This document shows, in pieces, positions 7,294-7,641 of a DNA stretch of 12,476 nucleotides. Position 1 is the stretch's first letter. Each line of letters opens with the position of its first letter. A program made the translations under genes and the position numbers. The stretch covers positions 1-12,476 of IMG/VR virus record IMGVR_UViG_3300012167_000333; one strand, given 5' to 3'. The notes under the pieces were generated by a model. The model searched no databases. It was not told the DNA's origin and worked only from the letters and a program-made list of their open reading frames with translations. The DNA comes from a virus.

Positions 7294-7444
7294 GGCTCAG
7301 TCGTCGCTGGATCGTAAGGTCAGGCGACATGCTGGCGGGCCCTTAATCCCAAGCCCAGGTGCGACGGACGTCGGACTGCTGGAGGTCCTTGTAGAGAAAG
7401 GCTGGCCAGAGCCCCAATCTTCTCCTTACCTCAGAGACAGCGCA

Positions 7445-7600
7445 ATGAGCACCGAGACCGTCATCACCAGCGTTGGAAGCACCGGCCAGATCGGCTGGGG
7501 CTCGTGCGTGGGTTCGACGAAGGGCCGCTGTCAGGGCGTCAAGAAGCGCCTGCCGGGTCACGGCTGCGAGCTACCCCGTCTGTCGTTGCTGCTCGCGTAA
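7445..7600 (+). CDS. Small Cys/Ser/Thr/Gly-rich protein (51 aa), hypothetical; competing tmRNA-like reading (see findings)
   Basis: ATG at 7445 to TAA at 7598-7600. By hand count about 44 of 51 codons end in G/C, against roughly 58-60% in the other two frames. Product MSTETVITSVGSTGQIGWGSCVGSTKGRCQGVKKRLPGHGCELPRLSLLLA. No clear SD. The frame is open back to the GTG at 7292 (102 aa), but that upstream half has weak codon bias. Confidence 0.4.
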   Translation: MSTETVITSVGSTGQIGWGSCVGSTKGRCQGVKKRLPGHGCELPRLSLLLA

Positions 7601-7641
7601 GCGAGTACAACGATCAGCGCGCGCAGCGCGCACAGACATTT

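Follow-up and report, generated by a model that had tools for sequence, protein, structure and literature searches.

With moderate confidence, positions 7294–7640 of a phage contig are read as the 5′ leader of a tRNA transcription unit driven by its own promoter, a leader that carries a genuine orphan gene of 51 codons, the resemblances of this region to tmRNA being coincidental. What is new is the placement of the 51-codon ORF in a defined transcription unit, comprising a promoter, a 5′ hairpin, and a Y-shaped RNA element. The explanation draws on direct observations, namely the anatomy of the leader, its codon statistics, its folding relative to shuffled sequences, and its lack of tmRNA signals. 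An initial annotation, made from the letters alone, had weighed a tmRNA-like RNA against a small Cys-rich coding sequence and leaned towards the latter. Its statements about the sequence all hold, with coordinates at most 1 nt off. Of its two readings, the small coding sequence is supported and the tmRNA is not.

The window, i.e., the whole stretch of DNA that was analysed, corresponds to one complete IMG/VR record (12,476 bp), estimated to cover 8% of a viral genome, and has a G+C content of 60–69%. Its gene content includes a tail sheath (PHROG 279), a PTH2-like protein, and a prohead protease, as well as 15–16 tRNA genes at 7109–9257 (ARAGORN, Rfam). The closest relative, and the sole cultured one, is Myxococcus phage Mx1. 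The sheath is 45% identical to its Mx1 counterpart, and the PTH2-like protein shares 53% identity with what is annotated as peptidyl-tRNA hydrolase in that phage; on the basis of these identities, the source is predicted to be an uncultured, distant, high-GC Mx1-like myovirus. The PTH2-like ORF, which the initial annotation had mentioned as part of the context, lies just upstream of the leader and matches Pfam PF01981 with an E value of 8.8e-5 and 23.1 bits against a cut-off of 23. In Mx1 (L009, 56915–58564 of the record), the peptidyl-tRNA hydrolase gene and a tRNA-Gly are preceded, at a distance of ~800 bp, by a gene for a TROVE-domain (Ro60-like) protein, of which the window shows no counterpart.

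Rfam calls a tRNA at 7109–7183 (40 bits) that ARAGORN does not, and the PTH2-like ORF (6764–7144) overlaps it by 36 nt, with its stop codon at 7142–7144. The next gene, tRNA-Ile(AAT) at 7188–7264, has an anticodon loop of 9 nt rather than 7 nt in the tRNA model alignment. Odd anticodon loops also occur in distant relatives, with a 2-nt “anticodon” in L002 and a 4-nt one in L004. Block 2, the unit led by the region under study, begins on the + strand with tRNA-Leu(GAG) at 7642–7726, called by both ARAGORN and Rfam, followed by tRNA-Leu(CAG), a CAA tRNA, and tRNA-Cys(GCA). A 15-bp all-GC hairpin at ~9338–9378 closes the tRNA region between convergent genes.

The initial annotation had called the region the leader of the second tRNA block, and rightly so. 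A sigma-70-type promoter, TTGACA-17 nt-TAGAGT, occupies 7265–7293 on the + strand directly after tRNA-Ile and matches the consensus at 10 of 12 positions. The same hexamers are repeated at 7980–8008, directly after tRNA-Cys, and the promoter scan returned three sites compared with 0.5 expected. Both the block-2 and block-3 promoters contain the phage motif GATTCGCTA, which lies at 7275–7283 in the former and has five + strand copies in all (3134, 6660, 7275, 7996, and 10255), every one of them intergenic. These copies belong to a longer motif, C(C/T)GATTCGCTAGA. TTGACA is found upstream of three of the five copies at two different distances; therefore, the motif may do more than space the −35 and −10 elements. 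Elsewhere, a true-looking terminator at 3073–3103, consisting of a perfect 14-bp hairpin and a U-rich tail, sits just before a promoter at 3118–3146.

Transcription of block 2 is predicted to start at about 7294–7301. The leader would thus open with a 5′-terminal stem-loop at 7298–7334 (+ strand), which is capped by a GUAA loop and has a predicted folding energy of −18.3 kcal/mol (z = −4.3), with none of 200 shuffles as stable. The remainder of 7298–7444 is structured at chance level (z = −0.1). This spacer of ~110 nt (7335–7444, + strand) carries no excess structure and turns C-rich and G-poor near the start codon. It harbors GAGCCCCA at 7409–7416, the supposed 3′ acceptor strand of the tmRNA reading, and, at 7433–7436, the sequence AGAG, a weak Shine–Dalgarno-like element 8 nt before the ATG at 7445.

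The 51-codon ORF extends on the + strand from this ATG to a TAA (7445–7600) and is supported by GC3, codon log-odds, and a public gene call. Its product is a small basic peptide of 51 aa containing three Cys and one His and ending in the tail LSLLLA; translation from ATG 7445 yields the very peptide given in the initial annotation. The hand count of about 44 G/C-ending codons out of 51 reported there is confirmed as 44 of the 51 sense codons. The corresponding GC3 is 0.846 when the stop is counted (binomial P = 3e-4), compared with 0.75–0.94 in the accepted genes of the window and 0.59 in the in-frame stretch 7292–7444. A codon log-odds model trained on seven window genes assigns the ORF +0.29 bit/codon, while neighbouring genes score 0.07–0.73. 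This value lies more than 4 sd above shuffled sequences, none of 5000 of which reach it. The other five frames over the ORF all have a negative score, the in-frame stretch 7292–7444 scores −0.42 bit/codon, i.e., non-coding, and the coding signal begins sharply at ATG 7445. The public gene caller predicted the same ORF with the same start (P0002).

Two alternatives to this ORF were considered and rejected. A longer frame of 102 codons could be drawn from GTG 7292, with an upstream half that scores as non-coding; this GTG is inside the −10 hexamer, and ATG 7445 is therefore taken as the start. A gene on the opposite strand, casting its periodicity onto the + strand, is not supported either, as all three minus frames contain stops and have negative scores. 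The ribosome-binding site of the ORF consists of the AGAG element only, and several accepted genes of the window do no better. At 63% GC, an open frame of this length is nothing unusual; the 12.5 kb contain 135 ORFs of at least 30 aa. An AlphaFold prediction from the single sequence of the peptide has a mean pLDDT of 58 and no confident fold. All told, the ORF is probably translated when the readings as an ordinary gene and as a leader peptide are counted together.

The reading as a small coding sequence thus draws support from the codon statistics and the sharp onset at ATG 7445, and homology lends it none. No homologue of the peptide was found by an exhaustive HMMER search of 1.84 billion representative proteins, in which the single other match was a repetitive 530-aa protein (P0003, E = 7.7e-4). 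Likewise, none was found in Pfam or PHROGs, in the ESM Atlas (all scores below 0.9), in scans of viral, metagenome, and genome contigs, or by blastn against 50,697 phage records. With no homologue in any resource searched, the ORF is an orphan. Its only other copy, near-identical and partial, comes from L007, a second metagenome contig that agrees with the window throughout the part of the ORF it covers. No homologues displaying purifying selection for the ORF occur in the databases searched, such that purifying selection on the peptide is not demonstrable there. P0004, a 490-aa membrane protein that shares a 90%-identity cluster with P0002, was rejected as a relative of the peptide because it has no detectable similarity to it; its place in the cluster looks like a clustering artefact of the protein collection.

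Six IMG/VR relatives, reached via the PTH2-like gene (43–59% identity), and Mx1 carry only 2–7 tRNAs, and no sequence alignable to the leader is present in any of them. A promoter-motif scan for relatives returned one unrelated contig only, and a prohead-protease scan found none. None of the relatives in the collections reached is near enough to support covariation or dN/dS analysis.

Near the 3′ end of the leader lies a Y-shaped three-way junction at 7578–7637 (+ strand), with a folding energy of −35.3 kcal/mol and a z of −4.4 (0 of 200 shuffles as stable). Of about 1240 windows on the + strand, it ranks in the top 10 by structure. In the predicted fold, a 6-bp closing helix (7578–7583 with 7632–7637) encloses two arms, namely hairpin A (7584–7612), which has 12 bp with a bulge, and hairpin B (7617–7631), which consists of six G-C pairs and a GCA triloop. 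The ORF stop, TAA 7598–7600, is held in the GUAA loop of hairpin A; its placement in a hairpin loop, which the initial annotation had likened to that of tag stops in tmRNA, is thereby borne out. Among the frames, only that of the ORF has its stop within the element. The 5′ strands of the element are the last seven codons of the ORF, including the Leu codons CTG, TTG, CTG, and CTC. The element folds independently of the downstream tRNA-Leu(GAG), whose 5′ end, the RNase P site, sits 4 nt past it. An alternative pairing of 7578–7597 with 7618–7637 is weak, with 75% complementarity. The element is followed by AUUUG only, with no U tract.

The leader of block 3 repeats this layout, with a promoter, a 5′ hairpin, AGAG, an ATG, a frame of 45 codons, a TAA in a Y element, and the first tRNA in the same order. 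The 5′ hairpin (8031–8084, + strand) has a z of −5.4 to −9.8. The AGAG is found 7 nt before the ATG, compared with 8 nt in the block-2 leader. The 45-codon ORF (8113–8250, + strand) is Thr/Arg-rich and, with a codon score of −0.09 bit/codon, is not gene-like. The block-3 Y element (8218–8285, + strand, z = −5.6) is composed of an 8-bp closing helix, a hairpin A of 9 bp, and a hairpin B of 6 bp with a GCA triloop. The TAA is placed right after hairpin A, and tRNA-Phe starts 2 nt past the element. Exactly two GC-rich 6-bp hairpins with a GCA triloop exist on both strands of the window, and these are the two hairpins B. When the two are compared directly in the sequences, three of the six pairs differ by double, pair-preserving changes. 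No intrinsic terminator (hairpin and U tract) follows either Y element on the + strand.

Sequence homology between the leaders of blocks 2 and 3 was considered and rejected, since only the promoter motif aligns significantly, and no Rfam family matches either leader. The two leaders are alike in architecture, not in sequence. A Y-shaped RNA that holds a stop codon ahead of the first tRNA of each block is a recurring and unexplained feature of this phage. Contig L007 is 99.7% identical to the window over 7550–10690, with eight differing positions in all and none inside 7550–7641. Among its differences are G8007A, which converts the block-3 −10 hexamer from TAGAGT to TAGAAT, a TTT deletion at 8054–8056 in the U-rich loop of the leader-3 5′ hairpin, and three substitutions within tRNA-Leu(CAG) and tRNA-Cys.

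The tmRNA reading postulates a degenerate or circularly permuted two-piece RNA with an acceptor piece ending at 7416, a coding piece starting at 7497, and the TAA at 7598–7600 as the tag stop. It is refuted by the detectors that the initial annotation had itself named for the purpose, ARAGORN and the Rfam tmRNA models, and is now extremely improbable. ARAGORN reports no tmRNA at default settings and, in tmRNA mode with permuted genes included, nothing at 7294–7640 at thresholds of 100, 95, and 90%. At an 80% threshold, it makes 16 scattered permuted tmRNA calls that amount to noise, some of them inside the sheath gene and none with the proposed ends. Rfam (all 4227 families), run at gathering thresholds and with lax filters (E ≤ 10) on 7150–7750, returns tRNAs only. 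When run explicitly, RF00023 and RF01849 have no match anywhere in the window, and RF01850 and RF01851 have only 2–15-bit matches on the tRNA array (7701–8565), none of them inside 7294–7640. These two-piece models match just the T arms of real tRNAs elsewhere.

The features that had suggested a tmRNA are nonetheless real. A 23-nt look-alike of the tmRNA 5′ end, GGGGCTC..GGGTTCGACG, is present at 7497–7519, inside the ORF (codons 18–25). Its upstream complement GAGCCCC is part of an 8-nt perfect inverted repeat (7409–7416 with 7496–7503, 79 nt between the arms). The stop codon in a hairpin loop, the hydrophobic C-terminus, and the setting among tRNA genes and PTH2 also fit. However, seven inverted repeats of at least 7 nt occur in these 377 nt, so the 8-nt repeat is unremarkable and not above chance. 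The objections on the acceptor pair and the T arm that had been raised at the outset stand. Pairing of GGGGCTC (7497–7503) with GAGCCCC (7409–7415) places G opposite C at acceptor pair 3-70 instead of forming G-U, and no T arm can be drawn in 7380–7408, ahead of the 3′ strand. The region of the supposed acceptor pairing, 7400–7530, has no excess folding energy (z = +0.55, with 138 of 200 shuffles folding as well). Further, the frame is not a tag frame, as it is continuous from ATG 7445 and its coding signal sets in 52 nt ahead of position 7497, where the RNA would have its 5′ end, with GC3 and codon score uniform from 7445 on, straight through 7497.

In the preferred reading, the ORF would be an ordinary lineage-specific small gene. 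Transcription would start near 7300 from the TTGACA-17-TAGAGT promoter, and RNase P, cutting at 7641/7642 during maturation of tRNA-Leu, would free a mini-mRNA of ~340 nt. This RNA would carry the stem-loop 7298–7334 at its 5′ end and the Y junction 7578–7637 at its 3′ end. It is hypothesized that the two structures shield it from 5′-end-dependent and 3′-exonucleolytic decay and that they prevent wrong pairing between the long leader and the first tRNA. Ribosomes would make the small basic Cys/His-containing peptide, and the 5′ half of the Y element would be unwound at termination. The transcript ends, the translation of the frame, and the protective role of the structures are predictions from the sequence.

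Two other readings accept the same anatomy and differ in the role of the ORF. In one, the ORF encodes a regulatory leader peptide, and the position of the ribosome decides the folding of the Y element and hence the output or maturation of the tRNA block. Lacking a terminator, such a system would be a relative of attenuation that acts via Rho, pausing, or RNase P access; both the regulatory role and this route are considered unlikely. At the end of the ORF, the terminal Leu codons CTG, TTG, CTG, and CTC match the three tRNAs with Leu anticodons just downstream. Four of five consecutive C-terminal codons are Leu codons (about 0.009, position-corrected), three Cys occur in 50 codons (P = 0.018), and block 2 serves these same two amino acids, Leu and Cys. 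However, Gly and Ser are enriched as much as Leu and have no tRNA in the block, and, since high-GC hosts commonly use CTG and CTC, a ribosome would not be expected to stall at these codons. Codons of its own block make up 16% of the ORF compared with a background of 8.7%, a post hoc match that is not significant over the whole ORF (P = 0.064). For the block-3 ORF, the corresponding values are 61% and 37% (P = 0.0009, also post hoc), and swapping the ORFs and blocks leads to depletion in both cases. The stop codons inside the Y element in both leaders and the alternative pairing described above are consistent with a ribosome-dependent switch. In contrast, the phage uses hairpin-plus-U terminators elsewhere (3073–3103) yet has none after either Y element, the codon usage of the ORF is ordinary and gene-like, the hypothesis was formed after the data had been seen, and no relatives were found for comparison. 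With a P of 0.064 and no terminator, the reading of the 51-codon ORF as a leader-peptide attenuator is weakly supported. Its generalization, in which each promoter-led tRNA block is gated by a mini-ORF and a Y-shaped RNA, is more doubtful still. Here, a ribosome translating block-cognate codons would terminate inside the Y element and set its folding, and hence tRNA synthesis or maturation via Rho, pausing, or RNase P access.

The other reading holds that the leader is wholly non-coding, that the ORF and its periodicity arise by chance in GC-rich sequence, and that only the promoter, 5′ hairpin, and Y element matter, e.g., as signals for processing, stability, or anti-termination of the untranslated tRNA transcript. 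It is the structured elements that the two leaders share, the block-3 leader ORF is not coding-like, and chance ORFs are abundant at this GC content. The failure to find a homologue of the peptide in the databases searched, its weak Shine–Dalgarno element, and the lack of a confident AlphaFold fold point the same way. Chance would, however, have to produce the GC3 of 0.85 and a codon score that is positive in the ORF frame only and starts sharply at the ATG. It would also have to account for the AGAG that precedes the ATG of both leader ORFs by 7–8 nt and for the TAA that both have within the Y element. A wholly non-coding leader is judged improbable, and the ordinary orphan gene in a structured leader remains the preferred reading.

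The analysis removes a false lead: the region holds no phage tmRNA, whether permuted or not. It also shows the parts with which a large, uncultured phage of the Mx1 type expresses its tRNA genes, namely a promoter dedicated to them, a leader with structured elements, and a short, probably translated frame. Most of the picture is ordinary, the exception being the recurring RNA structure, which is unexplained. Should the ORF be no more than a small orphan gene accompanied by stabilising hairpins, it belongs to routine phage “dark matter”. If the mini-ORF and Y module is regulatory, it bears on the timing and dosage of the tRNAs that phages supply for themselves, and gating by this module, if true, would represent a new form of translation-sensing control of tRNA genes that works without a terminator.

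Four known systems invite comparison. Some large tRNA-rich phages carry a tmRNA (ssrA) gene, e.g., cluster C mycobacteriophages such as Bxz1. The leader shares with tmRNA (RF00023, RF01849–RF01851) a GGGGCT..GGNTTCGACG string resembling the tmRNA 5′ end, an upstream complementary heptamer followed by A, a hairpin loop holding the stop codon, a peptide whose end is hydrophobic, and a place among phage tRNA genes. Unlike tmRNA, it has no covariance-model or ARAGORN match, G3-C70 in place of G3-U70, no T arm, and no excess structure, and its frame is an ATG-initiated ORF with a coding signal that begins upstream of the supposed RNA 5′ end.

Cis-acting leader RNAs can protect untranslated transcripts from termination, as do the two-hairpin put RNAs of HK022, the boxB of the lambda nut sites, and the boxB/boxA of rrn leaders. 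The likeness would lie in two adjacent leader hairpins just behind a promoter and before a long untranslated tRNA transcript, as well as in GNRA-type (GUAA) loops. In contrast to those RNAs, the leader has no match to an Rfam sequence or model, no boxA-like element was identified in it, and its hairpins overlap a coding frame.

Small hypothetical ORFs are interspersed in phage tRNA clusters, including the T4 tRNA region and the tRNA arrays of mycobacteriophages. The 51-codon ORF resembles them as a short lineage-specific ORF that would be co-transcribed with tRNAs and whose mRNA 3′ end is expected to be set by tRNA processing. It differs from them in being first behind a dedicated promoter and in having its stop built into a Y structure, a counterpart of which, different in sequence, precedes the next block. 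The units of tRNA arrays have been reviewed (PMC5966550).

Leader-peptide transcription attenuators control amino-acid operons, as exemplified by trpL, leuL, hisL, thrL, and pheL (PMC1183508, PMC3082878). The block-2 leader shares with these a short leader ORF, a cluster of product-related codons (the Leu run before Leu tRNA genes), and an ORF end that overlaps helices. Unlike the attenuators, it has neither an intrinsic terminator nor a clear 2:3 anti-terminator, and its ORF is long (51 codons) with ordinary codon usage. The genes under control would here be tRNAs rather than biosynthetic enzymes.
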